NCBI GenBank assembly: GCA_051744985.1
Contig: JBNJDP010000005.1
Location: forward strand, 1-48,633
Length of the DNA: 48,633 nucleotides
Source: Chlamydiota bacterium
GTDB taxonomy: Bacteria > Chlamydiota > Chlamydiia > Chlamydiales > JABHNK01
Direction: 5' to 3'
Part shown: positions 464-36,379 of the stretch, piece by piece
How positions within the stretch are numbered: the stretch's first letter is position 1
Layout of the letters: each line of letters begins with the position of its first letter
Made by a program: the position numbers and the translations under genes
The notes under the pieces: model-generated
The model's database searches: none
What the model was told of the DNA's origin: nothing
What the model saw: only the letters and a program-made list of their open reading frames with translations

Positions 464-1534
464 ATGGAAACAAAGATAAAAAATCTTTTGGGGCGTTTTT
501 CAGAGGTGGAAGCGGAACTTGGCAACCCTGAAGTCTTCAGCGACAAAAAAAAATATCGTCAACTAACTCAAGAACATGCCTATCTGAGTGAGATAAAAAA
601 AGTTTGGGAAGAGTTTCAAGCCTGTCAACAGGACCTCGAGGATAATGAAGAACTTTTGAGTGTTGAAGAAGATCCTGAGCTGGTGGCGGTTCTTAAAGAA
701 GATATTGCTAAGCTTGAAAAACATTTACCAGAATTGGAACAGCGTTTGTCGATACTCTTGGTGCCTCCTGATCCTCGAGATAATGCTAATACTATCTTAG
801 AAATAAGGGCAGGAACAGGTGGCGATGAAGCAGCCTTGTTTGTTGGTGATTGTGTTAGGATGTACCAGTTTTATGCCGATCATCAAGGCTGGAAGTATGA
901 GCACCTATCAAGTACTCCTTCGGAAGCAGGAGGGTATAAAGAATATATTATGGTTCTTTCAGGAAGTAATGTTTACCGTAAATTGCAATATGAAGGCGGC
1001 ACTCACCGTGTTCAACGGGTTCCTGCCACAGAATCTCAAGGACGTGTCCATACTTCAGCGATAACGGTCGCTGTTATGTTGGAGCCCGATGAGGAAGAAG
1101 ATTTTGATATCGATGATAAGGACTTGCGTATCGATACCCAAAGAGCTTCTGGCGCGGGAGGACAGCATGTTAACACCACAGATTCAGCAGTCAGGGTTAC
1201 CCATTTACCGACAGGTATCATCGCTTACTGTCAAGAAGAAAAAAGTCAGCATAAGAATAAGGAAAAGGCTCTTAGAATTCTTAAGGCACGAGTTATGGAA
1301 ATTGAGCGCGAAAAACAAGCCAAAGAAGAGGCTAGCATGCGCATGGCGCAGGTGGGCTCGGGAGATCGTTCCGAACGCATAAGGACCTATAACTTCCCTC
1401 AGAATCGATTGACAGACCACCGTATTAATTTAACTAAATACAACCTCGACAAAGTTATGGATGGCGACCTTGAAGACATCATCAGCGCCTTGGTTAATCA
1501 TTTCTACCAAAAGCAACTCCAAGAACAGCAATAA
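464..1534 (+). CDS. prfA: peptide chain release factor 1
   Basis: GGQ motif (GAGGQHVN), PAT tripeptide (RVPATE), RIRTYNFPQ; followed by prmC. Confidence 0.98.
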
Positions 1535-1536
1535 CG

Positions 1537-2382
1537 ATGAAAAGCATCAAAGAGATTCTTGATCTTAGCGTAGATTTTTTGGAGCAAAAAGGTGTTGCCA
1601 ATCCCCGTCGTCAGGCTGAGGAGTTGCTTGGTGCTGTTTTGGGATGTCATAGGGTTGATTTATATATTAATTTTGACCGCCCTCTTAATGAAGATGAGCT
1701 TAAGCGCTCTAGGGAAGTTTTGGCGCGGCGCGGTCAACGAGAGCCTCTTCAATACATTTTGGGCGAAGTAGATTTTTACGGCTGCAATATAGCCGTTTCG
1801 TCAGCTGTTCTTATCCCTCGCCAGGAGACTGAGATTCTCGTCGATAATATTGTTCGGCAATTGTCGAGACAGGAAAGTTTGGAAGGTAAAGTTTTGTGGG
1901 ATGTGTGCTGCGGCTCTGGCTGTATTGGTATAGCTCTTAAAAAGGCTTTGCCTCAGCTCGAGGTGATGCTTTCCGATAACGACCCTCAAGCTTTGAAAAT
2001 AGCTCAAACCAATGCCGAATCTAATCAGGTAGAAGTTGAGATTTTACCAGGAGACTTCTTGGAACCTTTTCACGGCAGAAAGGCTGACTTTGTTGTGTGC
2101 AACCCTCCCTATATATCTGATGAAGAATATGCTAACCTCGACCCTGAAGTTAGAGAATATGAGCCAAAAGTATCTTTGGTGTCTGGAAGGACGGGCTTGG
2201 AGTTTTATCATCGCTTAGCAGAAGGTTTGCCTGAGCTTTTGAATGCCGGTGCTTTAGTGTGGCTAGAAATAGGATTTGACCAAGGAGCGCAGCTTCAGAA
2301 ACTCTTCTCGCAACCTCCTTGGCGTGAATGCTCTTTGTTGCAAGACTGGGCGGGCCATGATCGCTTTATCGCTCTTAAGTGA
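1537..2382 (+). CDS. prmC: release factor glutamine N5-methyltransferase
   Basis: EPLQYILG, LIPRQETE, DVCCGSG SAM motif, NPPY; adjacent to prfA. Confidence 0.96.
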   Translation: MKSIKEILDLSVDFLEQKGVANPRRQAEELLGAVLGCHRVDLYINFDRPLNEDELKRSREVLARRGQREPLQYILGEVDFYGCNIAVSSAVLIPRQETEILVDNIVRQLSRQESLEGKVLWDVCCGSGCIGIALKKALPQLEVMLSDNDPQALKIAQTNAESNQVEVEILPGDFLEPFHGRKADFVVCNPPYISDEEYANLDPEVREYEPKVSLVSGRTGLEFYHRLAEGLPELLNAGALVWLEIGFDQGAQLQKLFSQPPWRECSLLQDWAGHDRFIALK

Positions 2383-2443
2383 TGTCTCCCTGATCTTATT
2401 CTTTAGCTGGGAAACATCAAGGGTTAAATTCTGAGGTTTTTAC

Positions 2444-2472
2444 TTGATCGGGAATTATTTTTTCAGTAGACT
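2444..2472 (+). promoter_or_regulatory. putative sigma70/sigma66 promoter of the ffh-rpsP-trmD-rplS operon
   Basis: TTGATC (2444-2449), 17-bp spacer, TAGACT (2467-2472). Confidence 0.5.
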
Positions 2473-2547
2473 ATTCCCTTTAAAATTAGGCGTTTCTATT
2501 TTTGTTTTTAATAATATATAGCAATGCGAACCTAACATAGGTTATTG

Positions 2548-3879
2548 ATGTTTGGATCTTTATCGGAAAAAATGCAAGATGTCTTCTCAGGCTTAAGAGG
2601 GAAGAATAAACTTACCGAAGGCAATATCAATGACGCCGTTCGGCAAGTCCGTTTGGCGTTATTAGAAGCCGATGTTAATTATAGTGTTGCGAAAATTCTT
2701 ATAAAGAGAGTTAAAGAGAAAGCTCTGGGCGACAAAGTCTTAAAGTCCGTATCTCCAGGTCAGCAATTTATCAAAGTTATTCATGATGAGTTGGTAGACC
2801 TTATGGGAGGAGAAGAAGGTGAGCTCAACTTGGACGGTAAGCCCGCGGTTATTATGCTATGTGGCCTGCAGGGCTCAGGGAAGACTACTCTTAGCGTTAA
2901 GCTTGCCAAGTTTTTAAAGAAAAAAGATTATGCTAAAAAAACCCTGCTAGCAGCTTGTGACTTACAAAGACCCGCAGCTATTGAACAGCTAAAAGCTTTA
3001 GGTGAGCGTGCTGCTGTTGAAGTATTTTCTCTGCCTGGCGAGCAAGATCCCGTCAAGGTCGCTAAAGAAGCCCATAAATATGCTAAAGCTCAAGGTTATG
3101 ATGTTCTGGTCGTGGACACTGCAGGGCGCCTCCATATTGATGATGAGCTGATGAAGCAGCTTACCAAAATGAAAAAAGTCCTTGACCCTCAAGAGCTACT
3201 CTTTGTAGCCAATGCTGCTACCGGCCAAGATGCAGTCAACATTGCCGCTGAATTTAACAGTCAGATGGAAGTTACTGGCAATATCTTAACTATGCTAGAT
3301 AGTAATGTAAGGGGTGGGGCAGCGATCTCTATCAGAGAGGTTACTAAAAAACCTCTGAAATTTGAAGGTGTAGGGGAAAGGCTCGATGACCTCCAGGTTT
3401 TTAATCCTACCTCGATGGCTGACCGTATTCTTGGTATGGGTGACACCATCAATCTCGTCAAACATGCTCAAGAACATGTAGACGAAGATGAAGCTAAAAA
3501 ATTAGAAGCTAAATTGCGAAAAGCGCAATTCTCTTTCGATGATTATTTGAAACAGATGCAGACCATCAAAAAGATGGGCTCTCTAAAAAAATTAATGGGT
3601 ATGATGCCCGGCATGGGTAATCTCAAGGATATTGATGTCCCTGAAAAAGAATTTATAAAAGTCGAAGCTATTATACTTTCGATGACTCCTGACGAACGTC
3701 AAGGCAAAGCTGAGCTGGCAGTCAGTCGTCGCAAACGTATAGCTAAAGGCAGTGGAACCAAGATTGAAGATATAAATAAATTGATAAAGTCCTTTAAAAG
3801 GGCAAAACAGTTTTTTAAGAAAATGCCAAATATGAAACAACTAGAAAAGATGATGGGAGGTTCATTACCATGGCGCTAA
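2548..3879 (+). CDS. ffh: signal recognition particle protein Ffh
   Basis: [21 protein letters not shown], Met-rich M domain; ATG 2548 chosen over TTG 2545. Confidence 0.98.
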
Positions 3880-13260: not shown

Positions 13261-13456
13261 ATAATCCTCCTCGTATGGTAGTGTTATTTTTATTCTTCCC
13301 TCACATGTATCAGATAGAAATTTTTGAGTAAACACACAAGTTGTCAATAGCCATAACTCAAGGGTGGTGCGCAATATTTAGTTAATAAAGTTGAAATCTT
13401 TTCCTAGATTGCTGTAAAACCAAATTAATTATAGTCATTTTTTGGGAGGCGGAAAT

Positions 13457-14116
13457 ATGTGTAAGAGTGTCAAAATAGCCCTTTTGTTGCTAATAACCCC
13501 TTTAGTATTGTGGGGGGTAGAAGCTCAAGGGCCTCTGGATGAACCGCAAAACGGTCAATGTATGACCATTACGGGCTTTAAGGATTATGGCAGCCATAAA
13601 TACATACAGTTTTGCGACGGCTCCCTCTGGATTATCGATCCTTTAGATGTTTATATTCTCAATAATCATTTAAGGGAGGATAACTTTTTGATCCAATCCA
13701 GCTATGATTATGAATATCCTCATCTGATATATTATACTGATGATGGGGCAACAGCTAAGATAGCATTAATACGCCTTGATGATGATGACCCCTTTATTCC
13801 CCAACAATCAGAACATTTATTAGACTCTTATTATATTTTGGATGAGCTCGAAAACGGCCTCGAAAGCTCATCGAGAGGAAATTATAATTACCGCGAAAAA
13901 AAATACGCTTCACATGGAATGCTGCGTCTTAAAGGGAACTATTATTGGCATATCGAGTCGGAAGAAGGAGTGAATTTGGCTGACTGGGAACATGGTGACA
14001 CTATTATGTTGATGATAAGGGTTCATGATACTGGCACATACTATTCTCAAGAAGGTTATGTTGCTGCCAATTTAGACAAAAATGAATGGGTATACGTTAC
14101 CCCTGTATTGATATAA
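13457..14116 (+). CDS. secreted hypothetical protein with two degenerate internal repeats
   Basis: signal-peptide-like N-terminus after GGAGG; YIQFCDGSLWII and MLRLKGNYYWHI segments. Confidence 0.7.
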   Translation: MCKSVKIALLLLITPLVLWGVEAQGPLDEPQNGQCMTITGFKDYGSHKYIQFCDGSLWIIDPLDVYILNNHLREDNFLIQSSYDYEYPHLIYYTDDGATAKIALIRLDDDDPFIPQQSEHLLDSYYILDELENGLESSSRGNYNYREKKYASHGMLRLKGNYYWHIESEEGVNLADWEHGDTIMLMIRVHDTGTYYSQEGYVAANLDKNEWVYVTPVLI

Positions 14117-22227: not shown

Positions 22228-24519
22228 TCATAAGGCCTTACGTCGTTTTTTTAGCCAACCATCTTCATCTTCAGGGGTAATATGAAACTTTTCGATATTG
22301 TCATAACAAAGATCGTTGAGTTTTTTGTTTTTTAGCTCTAGCACAGAGTATAAAAAGTTTACGCGTTCCTGCTGACTGAGGTTGTTAAGGAATTTATCAG
22401 CGTTTTTTATCCAGCTAGCAATAGCGGTGGTATTTTCCGCAGCAAACACGTAATCCGCTAGCATCTTTTGAGAAGAGGCTTCTAGCTCTAATTTTCTCAG
22501 AGATTTTAATAAGGAATAGTACGCTTTTGAATAGTTGGGGCGTGTGGCACAACTTTTTAAAAGTTGCTCAACGACACATACTAGATAATCTCTAGGAAGG
22601 TCTTTGAAGATCAAGAGACCAGCTGCTAAGTCGTCACTCTCAAGGGCTGGGATATCATCGATAGCATAAAAAATCCTGCTAACCTCTTCATAATTTTCTT
22701 GGCCAGCCCAGATAAAAATTTCCTTTAAAAGATGAGGGAATTGTCCTAATGGGCTGCCGATTTCTTTGCCGAATTTATCTTTAAAAAAACCTTTGCAGGT
22801 TTTTTTGGTGAGGATTTTTTTTGCCATTAACATTCTAATGCGGGGATCTGTAATCTTCAAGCATCCCAAATTTTTTATTATCGGCGCATAGTGGATACTG
22901 TCGGTTTCAAATTTCGTATGTAAGGCAAGGAAAAATTTAAGGTTTTCGTCATCGCTCAAATTATGCTCTTCGTTAAGGTGCTTGATAGTCTCCATGATAG
23001 CTTTAAAATATATATTTGCCCCATCAGTAATCCATTCCCATAGAAATGGTGGACGCCAGCTTAAAAATGAGGAGGGGGTGTTTTCAATATAATCATTTAA
23101 TAATGTGAGCGTTAAACCAGGGTTGTTATTCAGTTCTTTGACCGTTATTTGCATATCTTCAGGGGAGATATTTTTAACGGATCCTTTGTGTAAACCTATA
23201 GTATATTTTAAGAGCACTAGGTTCTCTATAGGTGAAAAACCGAAACTTCTGTAACACCCTAGAATCCTATTAGAATGGTCTTTTTCGACAATCATCTTGG
23301 TCGCTAGCGAGTAAAACTCCCTTCTATCACCCTTATTTTTTAGCTTATGGAAAGCAGCAGAGTTAAAGAGCTCATTATAATATGGTAGAGCTTTTCGTGC
23401 CTTGGCTGTTTCGTAACTCGTTCCCTGTTCAAAATGTTCTATGAGCCAATCGAAGAAGTTAGGTTTTGCTTTTTTAGCTTTATCAAGAATTTTGTATGCG
23501 TTCTTGGCTTCAGGACTTAAATTTTTATTTTTGCTACAACAATTAACCTCTGCGACCGTGGGCGGGAAATTAATCCTAGAACTAAGATATCGTTCTCCTA
23601 AGGGTTCGACAAGTTCAAAATCTTCCATTTCTAAGTTGGGGTTGAGATAGCTAGGGTTGTATTTGATATAGCCTTTCTCAGCGATAGCAACCCTGATAAG
23701 ATCCTTATCAAGAGGCAATCCAAAATCGTTTAGTGTATTGCTAGAGCAAAAGTATTGTTCGAAGTCTAATCCAGGGGCTACTGTTAAAATATTAAAAAAA
23801 ATATTTTGAGGTAAAGCATTAGTGATTTTGGTAATATCCTCCCTTAACCCAAAAATAAGCTGTCTCACCTCCGACTTATCCATAAGGTTTTTTTTTATAA
23901 ATTGACCGGTTACTTTTAAATCAACATAATCATCAACTCCAGATGAGATATCTAGAACGCCTTTATCAAGCTCATATCGACATACCAAAACATGAGCCCA
24001 TTTATTCCAATTAGTAGGCTGGGGTACCTCAAGGTCGGTAGGTGTCTCAAAAAGGGAGAGGTCTAACGCTTGCTTTTTGCAGGCATCCTCCAACCTTATG
24101 ACATGACTGTCCGATATTAAGCTGCTACTGGAAAAGTCAATATTATCGAGGGTGATAGCACCTTTGTCAAAGGTGGTCACTTTTATGCAATCACCTTGTT
24201 TTTGCAGTACTCTTAAACGAATATTGTTGAGATCTAACGAGGAGGGGGCGGAATCTGAGGATTTCACAAATTCTTGAATATCCCATAAAAGACTTAAAAA
24301 TTGGATGTGCAGGTCTTCGGGTGTGTAATCATGGTTGGCAATAAAAACAAAGTCATAATGATCACTAAGAGGGTCTGTTGATAAATCTACCAAGGATAAA
24401 TTGTAAGTCTGAGCGAAATCGATACTATAAGTCTGCAAGCTGGAAAAGCTGTTGCTACCAAATAATCCGCCGGTTGTTAAGAACAAGAGAGGTAATAATA
24501 AATATCGTAACTTTTTCAT
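22228..24519 (-). CDS. large secreted hypothetical protein
   Basis: long ORF; signal peptide MKKLRYLLLPLLFLTTGGLFG after GGAG; no recognised domain; ends in KKRRKAL. Confidence 0.75.
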   Translation of the reverse strand: MKKLRYLLLPLLFLTTGGLFGSNSFSSLQTYSIDFAQTYNLSLVDLSTDPLSDHYDFVFIANHDYTPEDLHIQFLSLLWDIQEFVKSSDSAPSSLDLNNIRLRVLQKQGDCIKVTTFDKGAITLDNIDFSSSSLISDSHVIRLEDACKKQALDLSLFETPTDLEVPQPTNWNKWAHVLVCRYELDKGVLDISSGVDDYVDLKVTGQFIKKNLMDKSEVRQLIFGLREDITKITNALPQNIFFNILTVAPGLDFEQYFCSSNTLNDFGLPLDKDLIRVAIAEKGYIKYNPSYLNPNLEMEDFELVEPLGERYLSSRINFPPTVAEVNCCSKNKNLSPEAKNAYKILDKAKKAKPNFFDWLIEHFEQGTSYETAKARKALPYYNELFNSAAFHKLKNKGDRREFYSLATKMIVEKDHSNRILGCYRSFGFSPIENLVLLKYTIGLHKGSVKNISPEDMQITVKELNNNPGLTLTLLNDYIENTPSSFLSWRPPFLWEWITDGANIYFKAIMETIKHLNEEHNLSDDENLKFFLALHTKFETDSIHYAPIIKNLGCLKITDPRIRMLMAKKILTKKTCKGFFKDKFGKEIGSPLGQFPHLLKEIFIWAGQENYEEVSRIFYAIDDIPALESDDLAAGLLIFKDLPRDYLVCVVEQLLKSCATRPNYSKAYYSLLKSLRKLELEASSQKMLADYVFAAENTTAIASWIKNADKFLNNLSQQERVNFLYSVLELKNKKLNDLCYDNIEKFHITPEDEDGWLKKRRKAL

Positions 24520-24745
24520 TTCTATCTCCATAATAAGCTTAGAGAATTTTTATATAATTAAAGTTAAAATTAAATTAAAAAATATTTCACAACTACCGAT
24601 ATGAGCAACAATTAAAATTTTCCGTTTACTAAAAAAGCGGACCGGATCATAAAAGATTCAAGTTATAATAGCTTAAATCTTTGATAGGCAGAGGCATTTT
24701 TATAAGATGCGGGCCTCTAGTTTTATATTGTTTTAGGAGGGGAAG

Positions 24746-26767
24746 ATGCAGTCGGACAATAAAAATTATAGTAGCAACAACGGAGGAGATAATTCTCATC
24801 ATGCTCATATGGTTGCTGACTTTAGAACAAGGTTCTGGGTATCTTTAATAGCTACTATACCTGTTTTGTTACTATCGCCGCTTATTCAATCCTTTTGGGG
24901 TTATCACCTAGAATTTGCTGGTTCACGACTTACCCTTTTAGTATTATCTACTTTTGTTTATTTCTATGGAGGATGGCCCTTTTTAAGGGGGCTAGTCAGC
25001 GAGATTAGCAAAAAGCTGCCGGGAATGATGACTCTTATCGCTGTAGCTATTTCGGTAGCATATTTTTATAGCGCCGCAGTGGCCTTGGGGTTACAAGGTA
25101 AAGTGTTCTTTTGGGAGTTGGTAACTCTTATTGATATTATGCTCCTAGGCCATTGGATAGAGATGAAGTCCGTAATGGGAGCTTCCAAAGCTTTGGAAGA
25201 GCTGGCAAAGCTCATGCCTTCAGAGGCTCATCGTTTAAAGGACGATGGTGAAGCTGTTGACGTTAAGCTTGAGGCATTGCATGCGGGCGATAAGGTTTTG
25301 GTAAAGCCGGGAGAGAAAATACCCGTCGATGGAAAAGTTTCGGAAGGAGCTTCGGAGGTTAATGAAGCTGCCATAACCGGAGAGTCAAAACCAGTAACTA
25401 AGCAGGAGGGTGATAAGGTTATCGGAGGCGCGGTCAACGGCGAAGGTTCTTTAACGGTAGAGGTGACTAAAACGGGAGAAGATTCTTATCTTTCCCAAGT
25501 GATAGAATTGGTAAAATCAGCCAGTGAAAGTAAGTCCAAGGTTCAAGGTCTTGCGGATAAGGCTGCTTTTTGGCTGACACTGGTAGCCGTTTCAGTAGGG
25601 GTAATAACTCTTATAAGCTGGCTTTTTGTCGGCAAGGAATTTGTCTTTGCCCTAGAGCGTATGGTGACAGTGATGGTTATTACCTGCCCCCATGCTTTGG
25701 GATTGGCTATACCTCTCGTCATCGCAGTTATCACAGCGATCTCCGCAAAGAATGGCCTTCTAATTAGAAATAGGACAGCTTTCGAAGGCGCTCGAAACCT
25801 CGATGTTGTCGTATTCGATAAGACAGGAACCTTGACAAAAGGGGAGTTCGGCGTATCGGATATTATATCTTTTGGTGATTGGAAAAAAGAAGAGCTGCTA
25901 AGAAAAGTTGCCGCTATTGAAACCCATTCTGAACACACCATTGCCTTGGGTATTATCAATAAGGCCAAACAGCAGGAACTTTCGTTGCCCAAAAGTGAAG
26001 ATTTTTCCTCATTGCCGGGCAAGGGAGCCCAAGCGCGTATTGAAAAAGAGGAGATTTTTGTTGGCAATAGAGGTATTTTGGAAAAGGGAGAAGCTTCTTT
26101 ATCCTCTGAGGAACGAGAAAAAAGTGAGGATCTAGCTTCTCAAGGTAAGACTTTGGTGTTTGTTGTCGCCAACAAACAAGTTCAAGGGGTCATTGCCCTT
26201 TCCGATATTATCAGAGAGGAGGCTAAAGAAGCTATCCAAAGGATTAAAAAGAGCGGTATTAAGGTTGGAATGATTACAGGTGATAACCATGCTACCGCGA
26301 AATTTGTTGCTAACGAATTAGGGATAGACGATTTTTTTGCTGAAGTATTGCCTGATAAAAAGTCTGAGAAGATTAAAGAGCTCCAAGAGCAGGGAAAACA
26401 GGTTGCTATGGTTGGCGATGGCGTAAATGATGCACCTGCATTAGCACAAGCCGATGTTGGGATAGCTATAGGAGCCGGCATGGACGTCGCTGGTGAAGCC
26501 GCTGACGTGGTCTTGACCGACAGTGATGCTGGAGATGTTCTTAGTGTCATCCAGTTATCAGGGATAACCTATCGCAAAACTGTGCAGAACCTTGCATGGG
26601 CTACAGGATATAACGTTTTTGCGATCCCTTTGGCGGCGGGGGTATTTTATCATTGGGGAATAATACTAGCGCCGGCGGTAGGGGCTTTGATAATGTCTTT
26701 GAGTACAATAATAGTAGCTATCAATGCTAAGCTTATAACCTTTCAGAAGAAGGGTAGAAAATTATAG
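24746..26767 (+). CDS. copper-translocating P1B-3 type ATPase (CopB-like)
   Basis: TGES, CPH metal motif, DKTGT, SEH, GDGVNDAP, YN and MSLST in the C-terminal TMs; short His-containing N-terminus; AGGAGG RBS. Confidence 0.92.
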   Translation: MQSDNKNYSSNNGGDNSHHAHMVADFRTRFWVSLIATIPVLLLSPLIQSFWGYHLEFAGSRLTLLVLSTFVYFYGGWPFLRGLVSEISKKLPGMMTLIAVAISVAYFYSAAVALGLQGKVFFWELVTLIDIMLLGHWIEMKSVMGASKALEELAKLMPSEAHRLKDDGEAVDVKLEALHAGDKVLVKPGEKIPVDGKVSEGASEVNEAAITGESKPVTKQEGDKVIGGAVNGEGSLTVEVTKTGEDSYLSQVIELVKSASESKSKVQGLADKAAFWLTLVAVSVGVITLISWLFVGKEFVFALERMVTVMVITCPHALGLAIPLVIAVITAISAKNGLLIRNRTAFEGARNLDVVVFDKTGTLTKGEFGVSDIISFGDWKKEELLRKVAAIETHSEHTIALGIINKAKQQELSLPKSEDFSSLPGKGAQARIEKEEIFVGNRGILEKGEASLSSEEREKSEDLASQGKTLVFVVANKQVQGVIALSDIIREEAKEAIQRIKKSGIKVGMITGDNHATAKFVANELGIDDFFAEVLPDKKSEKIKELQEQGKQVAMVGDGVNDAPALAQADVGIAIGAGMDVAGEAADVVLTDSDAGDVLSVIQLSGITYRKTVQNLAWATGYNVFAIPLAAGVFYHWGIILAPAVGALIMSLSTIIVAINAKLITFQKKGRKL

Positions 26768-26929: not shown

Positions 26930-27247
26930 ATGATGATTAACAATTTGCAATTATATGAATGGGGAAGGGGGCTGGCGGCCATTTTTTTTGTTGGAGGTGT
27001 ATATTTTCTTTGGCAAGCATGGAAGATGAGAGATGGCCAAGGTAATTCCTTTAACAGGAAAGTGATGATCAAAGGAATCTTGGGAATGCTGATGTTATTT
27101 TCCATGGCTACTCTTTTGATCTATCATTATTCACAGGAGCCTATACCGGAAAGAATTAAGCAGAACGAAGTCTTGCGAAATATTGAAGATGATTTACCGG
27201 AAATCAGCGCATTGGAACAAGATAACCCTATAGGCTTTTCTGGATGA
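26930..27247 (+). CDS. small two-TM membrane protein
   Basis: two hydrophobic segments and an acidic tail; 25 nt upstream of the MFS gene on the same strand. Confidence 0.6.
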   Translation: MMINNLQLYEWGRGLAAIFFVGGVYFLWQAWKMRDGQGNSFNRKVMIKGILGMLMLFSMATLLIYHYSQEPIPERIKQNEVLRNIEDDLPEISALEQDNPIGFSG

Positions 27248-27272
27248 AGAAACCTTAAAATATTGGTAAACG

Positions 27273-28538
27273 ATGGTTAAATTAAAGGCGCAAAAAATTT
27301 TATGGGGCGAAGGCTTAGCAGCGACTTTAGCGATCGGGATAGAGTATTATAGCGTTTTTATTTATGGTTATTTAGCTCCTATTATCGCTCCCTATTTTTT
27401 TGCAGGCGGTAGCCACCTTCATATGTGGGGTTCGATAGCCTTAGGTTATTTATTAGCACCTTTAGGAGCCGTTATCTGTGGCCATTTCGGCGATACTAAA
27501 GGACGTAAAATAATTTCTGCCTGGACGATAGCTTTAGTAGCTATTCCTACTTTTGTTATGAGCATATTGCCCACCTATGACCACATCGGTATATGGGCTT
27601 CGATCTTATTTGTCATTCTTCATTCGATCCAGGGAATGGCTTTTGGAGGGGAATTTTTAGGTTTGTTTACCTTCATAATGGAAAAAGCGCCTCGTCATCG
27701 TCGCGGTTTTTTGGGAGGTATTATTTCTTGTGGGTCTGCTATAGGTGTGCTAGCAGCTTCTCTTATGGTTTCAGCATTACATTTGTTGGATCATCCCTAC
27801 TCCAATTGGCTATGGCGCATACCCCTAGCATTAGGCGGGGTGGGTATATTATTAGCACTATACTTTTATCACTTGCATGGAGATACCGAAGTTTTTATGG
27901 AAGAGAAAGCCGAAAACGATATGGTAGCATGGCCAATATTGGAGTTATTTAAAAATAATTTTGGTAAATTCATTAAGATTATCGGTATCACCACTTTAGC
28001 CCCCATTATCACTATTGTAGTTTTCGGCTTTCTGCCTTATGTGGCTATTAAAGAGCTCGGATTTTCTCAGGAAAAGGGGATGTGGTTTAATACCATGTCA
28101 TTAGGGATGTTTATTTTTGCTCCTCTATTTGGATGGTTATCCGATAAGGTGGGGCGCAAGCCTATTTTGATAGGAGTTTCTGGGGCTTTTTTGATCTTGG
28201 GATTGCCTTTATTTAAGCTAATGGCAGTGAAGTCCTTGGTATCCTTTATCACGATACAGTTTATTTTTGCATTTATCGCTTCTGCTTATTATGGAGTTGC
28301 CTTGATAGCAGCTTTAGAGCTTTTGCCGATAAACGTCCGCTTTACTGGTGCAGCTTTAGGGTATAATATAACATATGCCTTTTTTGGAGGAGCCGCAGGA
28401 GCTCATATTGTTAATTTGCTTATTGCGGAAACTCATTACAAGCTAGCCCCACTTTTTTATTTTATTATAGGAGCTGCTCTCGTAATGGGGACTGTTCTAA
28501 CAATTAAGGAAACAGCTGACGAGGGTTTAGATTTTTAA
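27273..28538 (+). CDS. MFS transporter, MHS (ProP-like) family
   Basis: about 12 TMs; GHFGDTKGRK and GWLSDKVGRK loops, LPTY..IG, GGE, WRIP. Confidence 0.9.
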   Translation: MVKLKAQKILWGEGLAATLAIGIEYYSVFIYGYLAPIIAPYFFAGGSHLHMWGSIALGYLLAPLGAVICGHFGDTKGRKIISAWTIALVAIPTFVMSILPTYDHIGIWASILFVILHSIQGMAFGGEFLGLFTFIMEKAPRHRRGFLGGIISCGSAIGVLAASLMVSALHLLDHPYSNWLWRIPLALGGVGILLALYFYHLHGDTEVFMEEKAENDMVAWPILELFKNNFGKFIKIIGITTLAPIITIVVFGFLPYVAIKELGFSQEKGMWFNTMSLGMFIFAPLFGWLSDKVGRKPILIGVSGAFLILGLPLFKLMAVKSLVSFITIQFIFAFIASAYYGVALIAALELLPINVRFTGAALGYNITYAFFGGAAGAHIVNLLIAETHYKLAPLFYFIIGAALVMGTVLTIKETADEGLDF

Positions 28539-28578
28539 ATTAAGATAATAGAAAAGCTTTATATGAAAAGGAGTCTAT

Positions 28579-31500
28579 ATGAAAAATGCGCCTGAAAATG
28601 ATTCTCTTCTGCCTCTAACAGGTGAACAGTATCCATTATGGCAGGAAAGCCAACTATATCCCGATGATTACTCTTATCATTTCAATTTTGTTGCCCAACT
28701 AAATCATAAGATTTCTTCGGCTAGACTTCAGGGAACTATTAGGATAATTGCTGAACAGCGTCCTTTTTTGCGCACCCTGTTTAAAGAAGTGGAAGGTGTA
28801 CCTAAAAGGGAGTATCAAAATTCAGATTCATTAGAACTAAAGATAGTAGAGTGCTCTAATCAAGAAGCTGTTAAACAGTTAGCGGAGAGCGCCTATCAAG
28901 AACCTTTCGACCTATTGCAAGAGCTTCCGGCGCGCTTTATCTTATATAAAACCTCTGATGGCAATAATTATTTGCAGGTTATCATTCACCATATAGCTTT
29001 AGATCTTGCAGGATACATTGACCTGATTCCTAAAATCTTTGAGGTCTATTCTGAAAACCTTGATGAAGCCCCTGCACCCTCTAAAGATGATGATTTTGCT
29101 CTGCAGCAACAACAATACCTCGCTTCCGAGAAGGGTAAGGAAGATTTGAACTACTGGAAGGAGTATCTTTCAGGAGAATTGCAGCCTCCTCTTTTGCCTT
29201 TGCATAATAGTCATTCCGAGTATCATTCTGGGGTGCTTTATCGCGAATTGGATGCAGATTTAGAAGCTAGGCTAAAAAAAACAGCTAAAGCATTGCATGC
29301 AACATTTTTTTCTTTGCAGATAGCCGCATTTCAGGCCTTCCTTCATCGCTACACCGGCCAACCAGAGGTTATCAGCGGTATACCTATTCAAGTTGTAAGA
29401 TCTAAAGCTTCTTTATCTTCTATAGGTTATAGTGTTAACACATTGCCTATAAGAAATAGTTTTATGGAAACACGACCTTTTAGTTCTTTGGTAGTCGCAG
29501 TTAGCGCAGATCTCAAAAGAGCAGTAGAACATTGTCGTATGCCCTTCCAAATGATCAAAGAAGCTTGTCCGGATGCTTCATTCCAAACAATGATAGTTTC
29601 TCAAAGATCTAGAAATTATCACCAGTTGATAGATTTTGGGGTTGCTAAGGCAGGGGTAAAAATGAAACTCGGTGATATTGAGCTGGAATCGATAGGTATG
29701 GGGCACTTTCCTGTGGGAAGGACAGGGCTAACATTAGCGGTGGTCGAAACATCTCAAGGATATTATCTTTCCTATCATTTTAATGCTTTACTTTATAGCT
29801 ACGAGGAAATTGAGCGCCTGCAGAAGAACTTTCAGACTTTTCTATACTCTATTGCAGATAATCCTCATAAGCAAGTTTCCGAGCTTAGTTTGCTATCCCC
29901 TTCGGAGTATCAGCAAGTGGTTTGCGACTTCAATGATACTGCTGTTGACTTTGACCTGCAGCGTAATTTTATAGATTTTTTTGAGCGCCAGTGCCAGCAG
30001 ACTCCTCATGGTATAGCAGCGGAATATCAGGGAGAAAAGATTAGCTATCAAGAGCTAAAGGCGAAAGTCGATAAGTATGCATATTTGCTTCAGCAAGAGG
30101 GAATAACACGAGGGAGCTTAGTAGCTCTTTGCTTAGACCGTGGGATAGACTTTATCATTGCTATGGTTAGTGTGATGAAAAGCGGAGCGGCTTACCTTCC
30201 ATTAGATCATAAACAGCCTGCGGAGCGCCTGAATTATATCCTCGAAAATTCTAAGGCCAACCTTCTAGTAACCACTGATGAATATAAGGCGATCTTTAAG
30301 GATTATGCTGGCAAAGTGCTGGAGTATAGTAGTTGTCTTAATGATTGGGATGATGCCAACGATTTTCATCCTTCTCAAGAACCTAATCCTGACGATTTAG
30401 CATACGTTATATATACTTCTGGATCTACTGGACAGCCCAAAGGGGTCGAGGTCGGCAATAGGGCTTTGAGTAACTTTTTGCAGGCTATGCAAACATTTTT
30501 TCAGGTAGGCCCTGCTAACCGTTGGCTTGCTGTTACCACGGTATCTTTCGATATCTTTAACATGGAAATCCTCCTCCCCTTAATGACAGGAGCTACCGTT
30601 GTTATAGCTGACAGTGCAACAACTGTAGACCCCGTCGCGCTATCTCAGTCAATAGAAGATTATAAGATTAATATCATGCAAGCAACCCCTGCTACTTGGC
30701 GCCTGCTGGTCGATGGAGGTTGGGAAGGAAAAAATGATCTTAAGATTCTTAGCGGGGGAGAGGCTTTACCCCACAGCTTGGCAGAAGCTTTGCGTTGCCG
30801 ATGTCTAGAGCTTTGGAACTTGTATGGTCCTACAGAAACTACCATCTGGTCGGCGGTGAGAAAGATCGAAAACGTCGATGAGAAGCTCAATACTGCTTAC
30901 CCCATTGCCAACACCACATGCTATGTTCTTGATAACAATTTAAATCCGCTACCTTTAGGAGTTCTAGGAGAGCTCTATATCGGTGGCATAGGACTAGCAG
31001 AGGGTTACCGTCATCGTCCCGATCTGACAGCTGAACGTTTTATAGAAAGCCCTTTCGATAACGCTTTAAGTAGCAAATTATATAAGACGGGCGATATTGC
31101 CCGCTATTTGCCATCGGGAAGGTTGCAATTCTTGGGCCGCGCCGATTTTCAAGTTAAAATCAGAGGCTTTAGGATTGAGTTAGGGGAAATAGAAGCAGCT
31201 CTTACCAGCCATCAGGAGGTGACCAATGCTGTAGTAGACGTCGATGATGACCCCGAAGTAGGTAAGCGTTTGATAGCTTATTATACAGGCTCCGTTGACA
31301 AAGCTGAGGTCAATAACCTGCTCGAAGAGCGCCTGCCGGCATATATGATACCTTCAGCCTACATAGCTTTAGAAAGCATGCCTTTAACGCATAATGGCAA
31401 AATCGATCGTAAAAAGCTGCCTAAACCCAAAGCAGCAGACCTTACAGCTTTATCGGAAATGGTAGTGCCAAGAAATGAGATAGAAGAATCTTTAGCAGAA

Positions 31501-34500
31501 ATTTGGCAAGAAATTTTGAAGTTAGAGAGAGTGTCCGTCAAAGATCATTTTATTAAATTGGGAGGCCATTCGCTTTTAGCAGCTCAAGTAGTGCATAAAA
31601 TTAACCGGCGTTTTCAGCTAGCGTTGCCCTTAAAAGTGATTTTCGAAAAGCCTACTATTGAGCTCTTAGCTCATGAAGTTGCGGATGAGCTTAGCTGTAC
31701 GGCTTCCGAAGGCAAGGCAGGCATCAAGCTATGCCCGCGCTCGGAAATGTTACCTCTTTCATACTCTCAAAACCGTTTATGGTTCCTCGATCAGCTTGAA
31801 GAGCATAGCCCAATCTATAATGTTCCTTATGTGGTAACTATTAAAGGGACTCTTAATGCTGCTAGGCTCGAAAAGGCTATCAATACTGTTGTCGAGCGCC
31901 ATGAGATCTTACGAACATCATTTCCCGCTAAAGATGGAGTACCTTATCAAGATATTGCACCTCGTGCTAACTTTAGATTGCAAACTTCCAATGTTGCCGA
32001 TGAAGCTGAAGCACAGCAAGAGATTCTTAAGAAGGCCCAAAAACCTTTCGATATTACACGCTTACCGCTTTTTAGAGTTGCTTTGGTAGAGGTTAACAGC
32101 CAAAAGAGTTTTATGGCCTGCGCGTTTCACCATATTATCTTTGACGGTAGATCGATAGAGCTCTTTCTTAAAGAGGTTTGTCATATATATAGTGAGAAGG
32201 ATGATGCACAACTTCCACAATTATCGATCCAATATGCTGATTACGCCTACTGGGAGCAACATGGCCATGATAATGAGGCCACGGAGCATAACCTTATCGA
32301 CTGGTGGCAAAAGTCCTTGGCAGGAGCGCCACATTTTCTAAACTTGCCTATCGATCACCCGCGCCCGCCAGTACAAACTTTTCGGGGTGCTCTATGGGAG
32401 TTTTATGTTCCCAATGAAATTTTGCTTCCTTTAAAAGCCTGGGGGCAAACATGTCATGCTTCGACTTTTATGGTATTATTAGCAGCTTTTAAAGTTCTCC
32501 TTTCGCGCTATAGCGGGCAGGATGATATTATCGTAGGGGTCCCTGCCGATGGGCGTCAGCGCCCCGAAGAGGAAAAGTTGCTAGGATGTTTTATCAATAC
32601 ATTGGCTTTTAGAACGAACTTGGGAAGGGAGCCTTCTTTTCAAGAGCTTGTTGAGAGAGTACGTGATTTTGCTCTTCAAGCCTATGCTCATCAGGAGGTG
32701 CCTTTCGAAGAGCTCGTCGACCACTTGCAATTAGAGCGCTCTTTGAGTTACTCGCCACTATTTCAGGTGATGTTTAACATGTTAGCTCCTATAGATCAGG
32801 CAACATTAGGAGGGCTAGATATTTCTGTCGATGAGGTCGACAGGGGGATGGCACATTTTGATCTTAGCTTGTCAGTGCAAGAGACACCTCAAGGTTTGAA
32901 AGCCGTTTTCGAGTATAGTACTGATCTATTTAAGGAAGAGACTATCAAAAGAATGTCCGGCCATTACCTTCATCTGCTAGAAAGTATTATAGATAACCCC
33001 TCTGAGCAGGCTGACCAACTGCCAATGTTGTCGCCTGAGGAGTTGCATACCTGCCTTGAAGAGTGGAACAAGCCTAATATCGATTATGAAGATTATGAGA
33101 TTGTTCATGAGGTTTTTGAGCGGTGCGCAGCTCAAAATCCCGACGCCATTGCTGTAACTTACGAAGGAGAATCGTGGGATTATCGTCACTTGAATGCTAA
33201 GGCCAATATGGTAGCCCACACCTTGCTGGATCGCGGTGTGAAACCGGGGGCGATGATAGCAATTTGTGCAGGGCGAACAGCGGATTTCCTTGCGGGTATT
33301 TTGGGGATTATGAAGGCAGGGTGTGCTTATGTACCCATAGATCACCATGCTCCGCAGGATAAAATTGCTTATATCTTGCAGGATATCAACCCGCCCTTGG
33401 CTCTGACAGTTAGTTCGACGGCAGGGCGTATCACTCCACTAGGAGTGAAAACTATCAATATTGATGGTATTGAAGGGGAAAAAGCCTTTAACCCTCAGCG
33501 AGCAGTTTCTGGAGACTCTTTAGCTTATGTTATCTATACTTCGGGGTCTACAGGAAAACCTAAAGGAGTAGAGATCAGCCATGCTAGCATTTGTGATAGG
33601 GTAGCTTGGAAGGCTGCTCAATATCCTCTTGATAGCGATGATGTGGTCTTACACACTTACTCGTTTATTTTTGATGGATCGATTATTAACTACCTCTGGC
33701 CTTTATGCTACGGCATTCAACTGGTGATCGCCTCTACGGAAGAGCGTTTGGATAGCCATGCTCTCTTGGAACTCATTAATCATTATAGGGTTACAACTGT
33801 AGACCTATTGCCGTCTTTGATTCATGCTATACTTGAAGAGCACGATGTTAACAAATGTGCTTCGTTGAAAACTGTCTTCTCAGGGGGAGAAGCATTGTCA
33901 GGGGAGATTGTTCAGCTTTTCTACCAAAAGCTTCCCCACGCCGAGTTGCATAATACTTACGGCCCCACGGAAGCGACGGTGGAGGCTAGCTTTTGGCCTT
34001 GTGAACGTAGCTTCGATAGCGGGATAGCCCCTATAGGTAGGCCGATGGCCGGGGCTAGGCTATATATTTTGGATGGCAACCTCAATCCCGTGCCAGTGGG
34101 TGTTCCCGGTGAACTCTATATCGGAGGCAAAGGGCTGGCGAGAGCTTATCTCAACCTCCCCGGAATGACGGCGGAAAAATTTGTTCCCGATCCTTTTAAT
34201 TCTGCGCCAGGGGCGAGAATGTATAGAAGTGGCGATATTGTGAAATATCGTTCCGATGGTGTGATAGATTTTATTGGTAGAGGTGATAACCAAGTCAAAG
34301 TTAGTGGGTTTAGGATAGAATTAGGGGAAATCGAAGCTGCTTTAATGCGTCACCCTAAAATTCAAGAAGCCTTGGTGGAAGCTAAGCAACATCCTTCAGG
34401 ACAGAAATTTTTGGCTGCTTACCTTATTCTTGAGGAGAAGCTTGATGAGAGTACGAACTTAACAGAAATGCTCAAAGAAGAGCTGTCGCGTAGTTTGCCG

Positions 34501-35643
34501 GAATATATGATACCAAAGTTTTATACTGTCATGGAAAGCTATCCTACCTTGCTGAACGGTAAAATAGATAGAAAGAGCTTGCCGGAGCCTACCGTCATCG
34601 AAGAGAAAAGTGGTGAAATTGTTCCTCCAGAAGGTGAGCGTGAGGAGCGCTTGTTAGAAATGTGGTGCGAGATCCTACAGCTTGATACTATTGGGGTAAC
34701 GAGTAACTTCTTCGATTTTGGAGGTAACTCCTTATTGGCAGTGCGCCTGATAGCGCGGATACGTCATGCTTTTCAAGTTTCGCTGCCTTTGGCGAGCTTA
34801 TTTCAGCATTCTGCCGTTAGGACTTTGTCTCATGCTATTAACGAAATTAAGCATGGTGTTGACTGGTCGCCGCTAGTGCCCATTCAGTCTAAAGGTAATA
34901 AGACTCCGGTCTTCTGTATCCATCCTATCGGAGGCAATGTTTTGTGCTACCAGCCTCTTGCAGCATCTATAGGCCAGGAACATCCTTTTTATGGCCTTCA
35001 AGCTCGTGGGTTTGAGGAGGGACAGGAACCTTATAGTTCTATAGAATCTATGGCAGCGGAATACGTTAAGGAGATATGCTTAGCATACCCTCAAGGTCCA
35101 TATTTTGTTGGGGGATGGAGCTTTGGCGGGTTAGTAGCTATAGAGGTTGCTAGGCAGTTGCACGATGCAGGTTACCCTGTGGGAAGGGTTTTTCTGTTAG
35201 ATGCTTCTTCCAATCTCTCAGCTATTAAAGCTATGGATTTGGATGATGAAGCAGCTTTTGTTAAAGATCTCGCTCATCAGTTTGGTGTGGAGGTTGATGA
35301 TATCGAAGAAGGCCATGTCGATGATGTGTTGGCAAACTTTATCGAGAATGGCTTGAAAAATCCGACGGATTCATCAGATGAATATACCTCTAGGCTAGCG
35401 GCTGTAGCTAAAGCTCATTACCGTGCTTTGAAGTATTATGATATTCCAGCGCTCGACGTTCCTGTTACTCTGATTAAAGCTGAGGATAATCCTGAAAAGG
35501 CATTGGATTTAGGTTGGCAAGAGTTTGTGAGCAACCTTAACATACATGAAATCCCTGGAGATCATTGGACAATCTTCGAGCAGCCCAACCTGGCGACTTT
35601 GAGCGCTATAATAAAAGATCTAGGGGTAAGTTGTGAAAGTTGA
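28579..35643 (+). CDS. two-module nonribosomal peptide synthetase, C-A-T-C-A-T-TE
   Basis: C1 HHIALD (28987), A1 YTSGSTGQPKG/YGPTE, T1 GGHSL (Ser 31570), C2 HHIIFDG (32128), A2 YTSGSTGKPKG/YGPTE, T2 GGNSL (Ser 34729), TE GWSFG (35119) with His in GDH; AAGGAG RBS. Confidence 0.97.
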   Translation: MKNAPENDSLLPLTGEQYPLWQESQLYPDDYSYHFNFVAQLNHKISSARLQGTIRIIAEQRPFLRTLFKEVEGVPKREYQNSDSLELKIVECSNQEAVKQLAESAYQEPFDLLQELPARFILYKTSDGNNYLQVIIHHIALDLAGYIDLIPKIFEVYSENLDEAPAPSKDDDFALQQQQYLASEKGKEDLNYWKEYLSGELQPPLLPLHNSHSEYHSGVLYRELDADLEARLKKTAKALHATFFSLQIAAFQAFLHRYTGQPEVISGIPIQVVRSKASLSSIGYSVNTLPIRNSFMETRPFSSLVVAVSADLKRAVEHCRMPFQMIKEACPDASFQTMIVSQRSRNYHQLIDFGVAKAGVKMKLGDIELESIGMGHFPVGRTGLTLAVVETSQGYYLSYHFNALLYSYEEIERLQKNFQTFLYSIADNPHKQVSELSLLSPSEYQQVVCDFNDTAVDFDLQRNFIDFFERQCQQTPHGIAAEYQGEKISYQELKAKVDKYAYLLQQEGITRGSLVALCLDRGIDFIIAMVSVMKSGAAYLPLDHKQPAERLNYILENSKANLLVTTDEYKAIFKDYAGKVLEYSSCLNDWDDANDFHPSQEPNPDDLAYVIYTSGSTGQPKGVEVGNRALSNFLQAMQTFFQVGPANRWLAVTTVSFDIFNMEILLPLMTGATVVIADSATTVDPVALSQSIEDYKINIMQATPATWRLLVDGGWEGKNDLKILSGGEALPHSLAEALRCRCLELWNLYGPTETTIWSAVRKIENVDEKLNTAYPIANTTCYVLDNNLNPLPLGVLGELYIGGIGLAEGYRHRPDLTAERFIESPFDNALSSKLYKTGDIARYLPSGRLQFLGRADFQVKIRGFRIELGEIEAALTSHQEVTNAVVDVDDDPEVGKRLIAYYTGSVDKAEVNNLLEERLPAYMIPSAYIALESMPLTHNGKIDRKKLPKPKAADLTALSEMVVPRNEIEESLAEIWQEILKLERVSVKDHFIKLGGHSLLAAQVVHKINRRFQLALPLKVIFEKPTIELLAHEVADELSCTASEGKAGIKLCPRSEMLPLSYSQNRLWFLDQLEEHSPIYNVPYVVTIKGTLNAARLEKAINTVVERHEILRTSFPAKDGVPYQDIAPRANFRLQTSNVADEAEAQQEILKKAQKPFDITRLPLFRVALVEVNSQKSFMACAFHHIIFDGRSIELFLKEVCHIYSEKDDAQLPQLSIQYADYAYWEQHGHDNEATEHNLIDWWQKSLAGAPHFLNLPIDHPRPPVQTFRGALWEFYVPNEILLPLKAWGQTCHASTFMVLLAAFKVLLSRYSGQDDIIVGVPADGRQRPEEEKLLGCFINTLAFRTNLGREPSFQELVERVRDFALQAYAHQEVPFEELVDHLQLERSLSYSPLFQVMFNMLAPIDQATLGGLDISVDEVDRGMAHFDLSLSVQETPQGLKAVFEYSTDLFKEETIKRMSGHYLHLLESIIDNPSEQADQLPMLSPEELHTCLEEWNKPNIDYEDYEIVHEVFERCAAQNPDAIAVTYEGESWDYRHLNAKANMVAHTLLDRGVKPGAMIAICAGRTADFLAGILGIMKAGCAYVPIDHHAPQDKIAYILQDINPPLALTVSSTAGRITPLGVKTINIDGIEGEKAFNPQRAVSGDSLAYVIYTSGSTGKPKGVEISHASICDRVAWKAAQYPLDSDDVVLHTYSFIFDGSIINYLWPLCYGIQLVIASTEERLDSHALLELINHYRVTTVDLLPSLIHAILEEHDVNKCASLKTVFSGGEALSGEIVQLFYQKLPHAELHNTYGPTEATVEASFWPCERSFDSGIAPIGRPMAGARLYILDGNLNPVPVGVPGELYIGGKGLARAYLNLPGMTAEKFVPDPFNSAPGARMYRSGDIVKYRSDGVIDFIGRGDNQVKVSGFRIELGEIEAALMRHPKIQEALVEAKQHPSGQKFLAAYLILEEKLDESTNLTEMLKEELSRSLPEYMIPKFYTVMESYPTLLNGKIDRKSLPEPTVIEEKSGEIVPPEGEREERLLEMWCEILQLDTIGVTSNFFDFGGNSLLAVRLIARIRHAFQVSLPLASLFQHSAVRTLSHAINEIKHGVDWSPLVPIQSKGNKTPVFCIHPIGGNVLCYQPLAASIGQEHPFYGLQARGFEEGQEPYSSIESMAAEYVKEICLAYPQGPYFVGGWSFGGLVAIEVARQLHDAGYPVGRVFLLDASSNLSAIKAMDLDDEAAFVKDLAHQFGVEVDDIEEGHVDDVLANFIENGLKNPTDSSDEYTSRLAAVAKAHYRALKYYDIPALDVPVTLIKAEDNPEKALDLGWQEFVSNLNIHEIPGDHWTIFEQPNLATLSAIIKDLGVSCES

Positions 35644-36379
35644 TAGCTGTTGGAGATTATGGTCGCCAGGCAAGACACTCACCCGGGATGCTATCCAGGT
35701 ATGGTTGGTGGATTTTTCCAATCAAAAATTAAAAGCTTGCTTAGAAGATTTCAGGGCCACACTTTCTAAAGAAGAGAAAGCGCGTGCCGATGGGTTTAAG
35801 GAACGATATTACGGTGAACGTTATACTCTTGCTCATGGTGTGCTTCGTAAGCTTTTAGCCTACCAGCTTGGAAGGGATCCTAGTGAGGTGTGTTATTATT
35901 ATAATCACTATGGTAAGCCGGGGTTAGTGGGAGATTCAATATATTTTAATATCTCTTATTCCAACAATTTGGCGCTCTTGGCGTTCTCTACTGAAACACA
36001 AGTCGGCGTAGATATTACTAGGGTAGAATCTTTCACTGAGGTCGAAGGGTTGATAAGCTGCTGTTTTTCTCATGAAGAAAAACAAGAGATAAAAACTTTG
36101 ACATCTCAAGCAAGGACAGAATCTTTCTTTAGGAGATGGGCCGCTAAGGAGTCGATTGTTAAAGCTTTAGGGGTTGGACTTTTTTGGCCTTTAGATGAGC
36201 TGACGGTATTTTGGGATTCGGAACAAGCTAATGAGGTTATAGCAGCACCTCGTGAAGTTAAGGATAATTTTCAGTGCCTAGCATTGCCAGAGATTTCTGG
36301 TTATCAGGCTAGGCTGACTGTTAAGTTAAGCGAGGATTTTAAAGATGTTGAGCTGATGACTTTGCTATACAGCCCATAA
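35633..36379 (+). CDS. Sfp-type 4'-phosphopantetheinyl transferase
   Basis: YGKP, FNISYS, VGVD, FFRRWAAKESIVKALG; overlaps the NRPS end by 11 nt. Confidence 0.92.
   Translation: MKVDSCWRLWSPGKTLTRDAIQVWLVDFSNQKLKACLEDFRATLSKEEKARADGFKERYYGERYTLAHGVLRKLLAYQLGRDPSEVCYYYNHYGKPGLVGDSIYFNISYSNNLALLAFSTETQVGVDITRVESFTEVEGLISCCFSHEEKQEIKTLTSQARTESFFRRWAAKESIVKALGVGLFWPLDELTVFWDSEQANEVIAAPREVKDNFQCLALPEISGYQARLTVKLSEDFKDVELMTLLYSP

Follow-up and report, generated by a model that had tools for sequence, protein, structure and literature searches.

A native four-gene nonribosomal peptide synthetase cassette in a chlamydial genome, predicted to make an acylated glycyl-basic dipeptide

The 48,633-nucleotide stretch of DNA analysed here (the window) is one entire contig (C5; JBNJDP010000005.1) of a 1.55-Mb Chlamydiota genome (GCA_051744985.1; G000 below), which comprises 74 contigs and is rated 100% complete. 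It carries a 9.4-kb cassette of four co-oriented genes encoding a small membrane protein, a major facilitator superfamily (MFS) transporter, a bimodular nonribosomal peptide synthetase (NRPS) and a 4'-phosphopantetheinyl transferase (PPTase). The NRPS has the domain order C-A-T-C-A-T-TE (condensation, adenylation and carrier domains in two modules, followed by a thioesterase). We consider it probable that this is an intact, chromosomally native chlamydial cassette that makes an acylated product of glycine and a basic amino acid and that has its own transporter pair. In the proposed pathway, the PPTase would convert both carrier domains, T1 and T2, to their holo forms, module 1 would activate glycine, and module 2 would activate a basic amino acid, X, of the lysine, ornithine or arginine type. 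The second condensation domain, C2, would join the two residues to give Gly-X on T2, and the first, C1, would most likely add an acyl cap to the amine of the glycine. The acyl group would be drawn from a cellular thioester that is already present, either acyl-acyl carrier protein (acyl-ACP) or acyl-coenzyme A (acyl-CoA), because further NRPS modules and free-standing adenylating enzymes are both missing from the genome. Release by the TE would be hydrolytic or would use the side-chain amine of X as the attacking group, and the MFS protein and the small membrane protein may form a two-part pathway transporter, for product export or precursor import. In this scheme we infer what X is, that C1 acylates, how the product is released, which way transport runs and whatever biological role the pathway may have.

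The original prediction for this locus described four genes in one orientation, with gaps of 25 and 40 nt followed by an 11-nt overlap, and the list of open reading frames (ORFs) reproduced these coordinates exactly (Table 1). The gene identities that it proposed were also recovered, with Pfam assigning MFS_1 to the transporter, two copies each of Condensation, AMP-binding and PP-binding plus one Thioesterase to the NRPS, and ACPS to the PPTase. The C, A, T and TE domains follow one another in module order with Pfam scores above the cut-offs, as in a type I modular NRPS. Catalytic motifs are intact in T1, T2, C2 and the TE, and the C2 motif HHIIFDG and the TE motif GGWSFGG are identical in all four members of the NRPS family described below; C1 deviates, with HHIALDL. 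No epimerisation domain was found, MbtH is absent genome-wide, and none of the four genes is acyl-activating, all in agreement with the prediction. Across G000 there are two C domains (C1 and C2), three AMP-binding domains (A1, A2 and that of an Aas-like housekeeping protein) and four carrier domains (T1, T2, AcpP and that of the same Aas-like protein, in which PlsC, carrier and AMP-binding parts are combined), and no free-standing adenylating enzyme was detected. The Aas-like protein (904 aa; G000:C19, L074:1063-3777, minus strand) is the sole other carrier-plus-ligase in the genome, and ORFs of ~890-950 aa that match its ligase part occur in most of 40 relatives. A scan for regulatory signals gave 33 promoter-like sites, with 26.5 expected, and 11 terminator-like sites, with 12.3 expected.

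The NRPS belongs to a family of four, made up of the window protein (P0001) and three others. P0010 (2386 aa), known as a protein alone, has the same domain order and is 42% identical to the window NRPS over its full length. The second, found with a pattern for an A2 pocket motif, lies on a metagenome contig of 14,003 nt and 27.5% G+C (GC) content (L051), where a 109-aa small ORF, an MFS gene, a 2383-aa NRPS gene and a convergent PPTase gene make up the cassette; this NRPS is 41% identical to that of the window and 45% identical to P0010. The third is in G327, a genome from another family of the same order, in which the small ORF, the MFS gene and the PPTase gene adjoin the NRPS gene on a 50-kb contig (L067; G327:C24). 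The same four genes thus stand together in 3/3 readable contexts, namely the window, L051 and G327, which bears out the description of the cassette as self-contained.

The family is rare: besides G000 it was found in 1/399 genomes of the order sample and 0/399 of the phylum sample. No orthologue was detected in any of the 40 relatives; the top match there, at 33% identity, was to an NRPS cluster in G031 that is larger and distinct, and the housekeeping ligase of ~900 aa accounted for most of the rest. In the order sample, 46/400 scored genomes, G000 included and with one further genome unscored, contained a C-domain match at E <= 1e-10, and only G327 exceeded generic C-domain similarity (253.9 bits vs 125.5 for the next genome). 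In the phylum-wide sample, none of the 399 other genomes gave a match at E <= 1e-45. A contig scan with the whole NRPS returned distant multi-gene clusters at 28-38% identity, which were rejected as orthologues; a first metagenome scan with a C1 alignment found no relative, and a representative search with C1 and a homologue search with the A2 region, both dominated by giant NRPSs, gave none above 46% identity among the matches listed. The window NRPS is its own 50% representative.

The G327 copy bears on whether the cassette still functions. Its NRPS, which spans query residues 11-2346 (L067 7644-14826, minus strand), is broken up by three frame changes and a single in-frame stop, with the MFS, PPTase and small ORFs open, and it is either a pseudogene or an assembly error in a genome that is 74% complete. 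Unless the breaks are assembly errors, at least one lineage can do without the system, a point against the proposed explanation. Together with the rarity of the family, this broken copy could mean that the cassette is a silent or decaying relic that makes no product in the G000 organism. We regard this as quite unlikely, because the 7-kb NRPS ORF of the window is uninterrupted and has all core motifs, the PPTase, MFS and small ORF are intact too, and the composition is fully ameliorated. The four-gene set is kept in genomes that differ widely (27% and 40-42% GC), and the A2 pocket does not vary among them; this retention, together with the presence of a complete 9.4-kb assembly line in a 1.55-Mb genome, argues for a selected function.

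Motifs A4, A5 and A10 served as anchors for reading the adenylation codes, and a MAFFT alignment of 308 A domains served as a check; the columns used return many textbook codes. The A1 code given in the original prediction, DIMQLGLIWK, was reproduced exactly and agrees at 9/10 positions with DILQLGLIWK, which occurs nine times among the aligned domains and is an established glycine code. In P0010 and G327, A1 reads DILQLGMIWK, which the accessible part of PMC12283262 names as a glycine signature, and the predicted activation of glycine is thereby strengthened. For P0010 the 308-domain alignment gave DILQTGMIWK, whereas pairwise and BLAST alignments both gave DILQLGMIWK, and the latter was adopted. 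A1 is therefore predicted to be of the glycine type in 3/4 members; for the L051 domain (DVGHLSLIWK) the assignment goes no further than a small residue.

The A2 code, DGIDFGTVEK, is identical in 4/4 members, although overall protein identity is only 41-45%. No other domain is as conserved as A2 (51-55% identity, 210/505 positions invariant). This code occurs in no other A domain of the alignment, motif scans of all 390 fetched proteins revealed no further carrier, and full-text literature searches for the code strings returned no description. The nearest code in the alignment is DGEDHGTVVK, at 7/10, with no exact or 9/10 match. In the part of PMC12283262 that was available, DGEDHGTVVK is a lysine signature, one residue away from an ornithine signature, and Asp278 is described as typical of arginine codes. 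Since the A2 pocket has both D278, which marks lysine, ornithine and arginine codes, and E331 and lies near the lysine signature, its sequence suggests a basic substrate of the lysine, ornithine or arginine type, a prediction of class and no identification. Residue X, which had been left open in the original prediction, is narrowed to this extent. Against a closer assignment stands the agreement of the code with any known code at no more than 7/10 positions, by which X is predicted as a class, and the ranking of A2 against PDB structures was uninformative on specificity.

The proposed acylation depends on C1, which begins at residue 1 of the NRPS, with no module to precede it in this protein or elsewhere in the genome, and so has the position of a starter domain. 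C1 is divergent, with a Pfam score far below that of C2 (Table 1). In a FastTree phylogeny of 365 C domains from P0001 and 119 other NRPS proteins, it pairs with the C1 of P0010 at a support of 1.0. Hidden Markov models (HMMs) were built from C domains grouped by context under rough rules of our own; C1 scored 262 against the N-terminal model, 243 against the post-acyl-ligase (post-FAAL) model and 232 against the internal model, and the corresponding scores of C2 were 540, 453 and 535. By these scores C1 leans mildly toward initiating types. The domain is also under evident constraint, since 107/445 positions are invariant in C1 vs 123/445 in C2 and the three intact members share 35-39% identity over C1, so that C1 is as constrained as C2 and the TE.

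Several observations weigh against acylation by C1. Elongation-type and PvdL-type domains (Txo2, PvdL and TycC, 78-91 bits) score higher on C1 than starter C domains do (63.9 bits for RzmA, 50.2 for CDA-C1 and 38.2 for SrfA-A), and the deeper placement of C1 in the tree, with a support of just 0.21-0.46, joins no labelled group. The best PDB match is Txo2 (90.9 bits), followed by PvdL (86.2 bits). The PvdL match is to its first C domain, at chain residues ~647-1020. That domain follows an N-terminal acyl ligase and a carrier. The motif reads HHIALDL in the window and HHIATAL, HHIVITF and HHIAATI in the other members; both histidines are kept in 4/4, but the aspartate of HHxxxDG is missing in 3/4, and catalysis by C1 is therefore not assured. 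Finally, none of the three cassettes examined contains an acyl-activating or acyl-carrier gene.

These observations are also what would be expected if C1 were a non-catalytic remnant with a structural or docking role, in which case the product would be free Gly-X, a diketopiperazine or a side-chain lactam without an N-acyl group. The degenerate motif, the low scores against every solved C domain and the lack of an acyl-activation gene in the cassette would all fit. We nevertheless judge this unlikely, since C1 is conserved to the same degree as C2 and the TE, keeps both histidines throughout, and would amount to 1.3 kb of inert coding sequence retained in a 1.55-Mb genome and across lineages whose proteins are 41-45% identical. 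The N-acylation put forward in the original prediction thus gains from the conservation of an N-terminal C1 and loses from the failure of C1 to group with characterised starters and from the absence of an acyl-activating gene in the cluster; from the sequence evidence as it stands, an N-terminal cap appears likely. With neither a further C domain nor a free-standing adenylating enzyme encoded in the genome, the candidate acyl donors narrow to acyl-AcpP, acyl-CoA or the carrier of the 904-aa PlsC-carrier-ligase protein. This arrangement resembles that of lipoinitiated NRPSs (SrfA-A, CDA PSI, RzmA and the PvdL type), which likewise have an N-terminal C domain that no module precedes in the protein, and it would share their logic of an acyl thioester donor and an aminoacyl-T acceptor. 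The window cassette differs from them in its scores of only 38-64 bits to the starters, its degenerate motif and its lack of an acyl ligase or ACP.

The nativeness of the cassette follows from its host genome and its surroundings. G000 encodes three TLC nucleotide transporters and an export gate of the SctV/FHIPEP type, and FtsZ has no match in this complete genome, as compared with its presence in 13/14 control genomes. The kin listed from the 400-genome phylum sample all belong to the same order and include a genus with 1.0-1.2-Mb genomes. On these grounds we accept G000 as a chlamydia on its gene content, as the original prediction had supposed. The cluster is preceded by a block of nadK-dxs-xseA and two more genes that is conserved in synteny in G002 and G005, which belong to other families of the order, and the same holds for the gene for a HEAT-repeat protein and Maf downstream. 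In G002 and G005 the gap between these blocks is occupied by a conserved ORF of ~700 aa, and in the window by a 767-aa ORF, a CopA-like ATPase gene and the cluster. The GC content of the cluster is 0.429 and that of the genome 0.419; among 226 genome windows, the tetranucleotide distance of the cluster ranks at the 58th percentile.

A chimeric contig, which the original prediction had named as a possible refutation, is unlikely, and any acquisition of the cluster was not recent, because synteny extends to both sides and the composition is ordinary. The related explanation that an assembly or binning artefact joined a non-chlamydial NRPS fragment to chlamydial DNA can draw on the draft state of the genome (74 contigs) and on the best NRPS relatives from outside the family, which are in other phyla at 28-38% identity. 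It is extremely unlikely in view of chlamydial synteny on both sides within a single contig, a genome-typical composition, and a second family member on a 50-kb contig of a different chlamydial genome. As for the 767-aa ORF in the syntenic slot, a candidate reading as a diverged counterpart of the ~700-aa ORFs of G002 and G005 was rejected, as it is unrelated to them and they share 33% identity with each other.

TIGR00883 is the best-scoring NCBIfam model for the MFS protein (237.9 bits), followed by ProP (169.5 bits), and drug-efflux models score ~22 bits; the TIGR00883 score is below the cut-off of 443, and the protein is therefore only metabolite:H+ symporter (MHS)-like. The cassette MFS proteins of L051 and G327 are 47% and 44% identical to that of the window, and other chlamydial MHS-like paralogues, at 24-33% identity, occur in 19/40 relatives. 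The family that it resembles is known for uptake, which counts against the proposed scheme, and the reading of this importer-type (ProP/MHS-like) protein as an exporter is an assumption. The small protein had been described as having two transmembrane segments. With a 19-residue Kyte-Doolittle window and a threshold of 1.6, the window protein shows one segment (46-64), but each of its two homologues has two clear segments, so that the description holds for the homologues and in part for the window protein. These homologues are 31% identical over 83 aa in L051 (E 1.7e-10) and lie at 5380-5643 of L067 in G327 (E 2.9e-5), and the small ORF directly precedes the MFS gene in 3/3 contexts.

A model of the complex between the small protein and the MFS protein scored 0.62, compared with 0.00 for the best of three controls. 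The mark applied is reached by 58/80 solved complexes and by 2/110 mismatched pairs, rates that are approximate here as the alignments had three rows. The runs shared at least 77% of contacts with a partner pLDDT of at least 67, and the modelled interface places residues 45-68 of the small protein against residues 94-103 and 176-202 of the MFS protein. The model thus lends support to a putative binding of the small protein to the transporter. The PPTase, with its ACPS-superfamily domain (61.4 bits, cut-off 25), a length in the range of about 230-250 aa and a gene adjoining that of its synthetase, is of the Sfp type; its NCBIfam HetI score of 120.9 bits is below the equivalog cut-off of 370. 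PPTase genes stand beside the NRPS gene in L051 (29% identity) and G327 (32%), where the proteins also have AASDHPPT_N, and a homologue was found in only 2/40 relatives.

The domain order of the window NRPS is also that of a siderophore synthetase, DhbF of the bacillibactin pathway, which has the order C-A(Gly)-T-C-A-T-TE. A DhbF/EntF-like iterative synthetase would receive an aryl or other acid from a separate carrier, and its TE would oligomerise Gly-X into a metal-binding macrocycle. Generic NCBIfam matches to EntF (848 bits, cut-off 2400) and MxcG, both below the cut-offs, are in line with such a system, and a co-oriented gene for a CopA-like P1B-type ATPase directly upstream may hint at a link to metal. 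The similarity is generic, and this reading is very unlikely: a free-standing adenylating enzyme or aryl-acid ligase, an aryl carrier and MbtH are all missing from the genome, and the A2 code, which is not of the serine or threonine type, would leave no hydroxyl for oligomerisation through esters. Nor was an ATPase homologue found beside the G327 cassette or a P-type ATPase ORF on L051, for which reason the ATPase was also rejected as a member of the cassette.

The TE finds its best PDB match in AB3403 of Acinetobacter baumannii (PDB 4ZXH/4ZXI; 99.1 bits), which is also a good match for A1 (345.5 bits). As described in the accessible part of PMC10510592, AB3403 is a C-A-T-TE protein with glycine in the crystallised A domain, a C domain fed by a separate carrier and an undefined product. 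It differs from the window NRPS in having one module, and its pathway includes a free-standing adenylation domain and a carrier, both lacking in the window genome. The lubA-D cluster from a sponge metagenome, as far as the available text of PMC3397433 shows, has the same NRPS order in a protein of 2401 aa, an adjoining PPTase gene and an upstream transporter, and its predicted product is an uncharacterised dipeptide. According to the same text, lubA-D differs in its 68% GC content, its A domains predicted to be specific for aromatic residues, its unrelated host and its transporter, a 1128-aa 'resistance protein' that, unlike the window MFS, is not of the MHS type with a small partner.

Chlamydiae live as obligate intracellular bacteria and have small genomes; the original prediction presented the cassette as the best candidate in the window for an undescribed system. 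An antiSMASH survey from 2022 reported biosynthetic gene clusters and NRPS genes across the Chlamydiae phylum (PMC9666466, accessible part), and a later genome paper (PMC13229535, likewise in part) agrees that NRPS genes are not rare in the order. The portion of PMC9666466 that was available gives cluster classes, with no bimodular Gly-X synthetase, specificity codes or four-gene cassette in that text, and its Data S8 and S10 may list related clusters. Full-text literature searches combining Chlamydiae with NRPS and the architecture yielded no description of the four-gene family, and no characterised natural product from Chlamydiae appeared in the literature searched. The claim of chlamydial novelty is thus weakened for NRPS genes as such, which were present in 46/400 genomes of the order and in the accessible text of PMC9666466, and, within that literature, may hold for the family, of which no description was found. 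We conclude that this is a real orphan NRPS cluster whose architecture has already been seen in compact orphan clusters of the lubA-D type. What is new here is a small conserved four-gene family, distinguished by an invariant A2 code, a clade of C1 domains that lack the aspartate and the pairing of an MFS protein with a small subunit.

The cassette is small enough to be expressed whole in Escherichia coli. The host-modulating or defensive role suggested in the original prediction is a candidate role only; a product with activity toward the host or toward co-infecting microbes would offer a chemical handle on symbiont biology. One further, speculative and unlikely scheme is an undescribed pathway of intracellular bacteria to a cationic lipodipeptide (fatty acyl-Gly-Lys/Orn). 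In this scheme, Asp-less C1 domains would cap glycine with chains from AcpP or from the PlsC-carrier-ligase protein, which would load scavenged fatty acids, and the MHS-type MFS with its 2-TM (two-transmembrane-segment) subunit, as a new transporter of two components, would deliver the product to the inclusion or the host, where it might act on membranes or competitors.

Table 1 Features of the cassette, of the NRPS domains and of neighbouring genes in the window
Feature	Position	Strand	Evidence
Small membrane protein, 105 aa; probable accessory subunit of adjacent MFS	26930-27247	+	ORF list; no Pfam/NCBIfam family
MFS transporter, 421 aa; metabolite:H+ symporter (ProP/MHS)-like	27273-28538	+	Pfam MFS_1 8.3e-25
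Bimodular NRPS, 2354 aa; C-A-T-C-A-T-TE	28579-35643	+	Pfam domains; full-length homology to P0010 and L051 NRPS
Sfp/HetI-like 4'-phosphopantetheinyl transferase, 248 aa; GTG start	35633-36379	+	Pfam ACPS
C1, divergent N-terminal condensation; HHIALDL	28579-29913	+	Pfam Condensation 28609-29919, 206.6 bits
A1, adenylation; DIMQLGLIWK (Gly-like)	29944-31428	+	AMP-binding 29980-31008
T1 carrier; serine motif LGGHSLL	31465-31695	+	PP-binding 31489-31674
C2, canonical condensation; HHIIFDG	31729-33063	+	Condensation 31744-33042, 362.5 bits
A2, adenylation; DGIDFGTVEK (predicted basic residue)	33079-34593	+	AMP-binding 33115-34152
T2 carrier; serine motif FGGNSLL	34624-34863	+	PP-binding 34645-34839
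TE; nucleophile motif GGWSFGG	34894-35640	+	Pfam Thioesterase 1.2e-34
ORF of 767 aa in the syntenic slot of the ~700-aa ORF	22228-24531	-	No Pfam/NCBIfam family
CopA-like copper/heavy-metal P1B-type ATPase	24746-26767	+	TIGR01511 608 bits, TIGR01525 612 bits, both above cut-off; no Pfam HMA match
HEAT-repeat protein, 553 aa	36393-38054	-	27-44% identity in 5/5 order genomes tested
ABC ATPase (residues 20-156) fused to MlaE-type permease (307-480), 493 aa	38960-40441	-	
Methyltransferase, 221 aa	45694-46359	+	Weak Pfam DOT1 (histone methylation) match 1.2e-8

Several features of the flanking sequence may be recorded. Throughout the contig (1-48633), all 2-kb windows have a positive GC skew. The CopA-like ATPase gene ends 163 nt upstream of the cassette. 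In the metagenome contig L051, the flanks of the cassette (1-3400 and 13300-14003) contain short ORFs only, without convincing families. The gene for the HEAT-repeat protein adjoins Maf in every locus examined. The two halves of the ATPase/MlaE fusion protein find their best matches in separate ORFs of ~260-290 aa in five relatives. The 221-aa methyltransferase, which also matches a protein-lysine methyltransferase model of NCBIfam below the cut-off, is a possible eukaryote-like effector.

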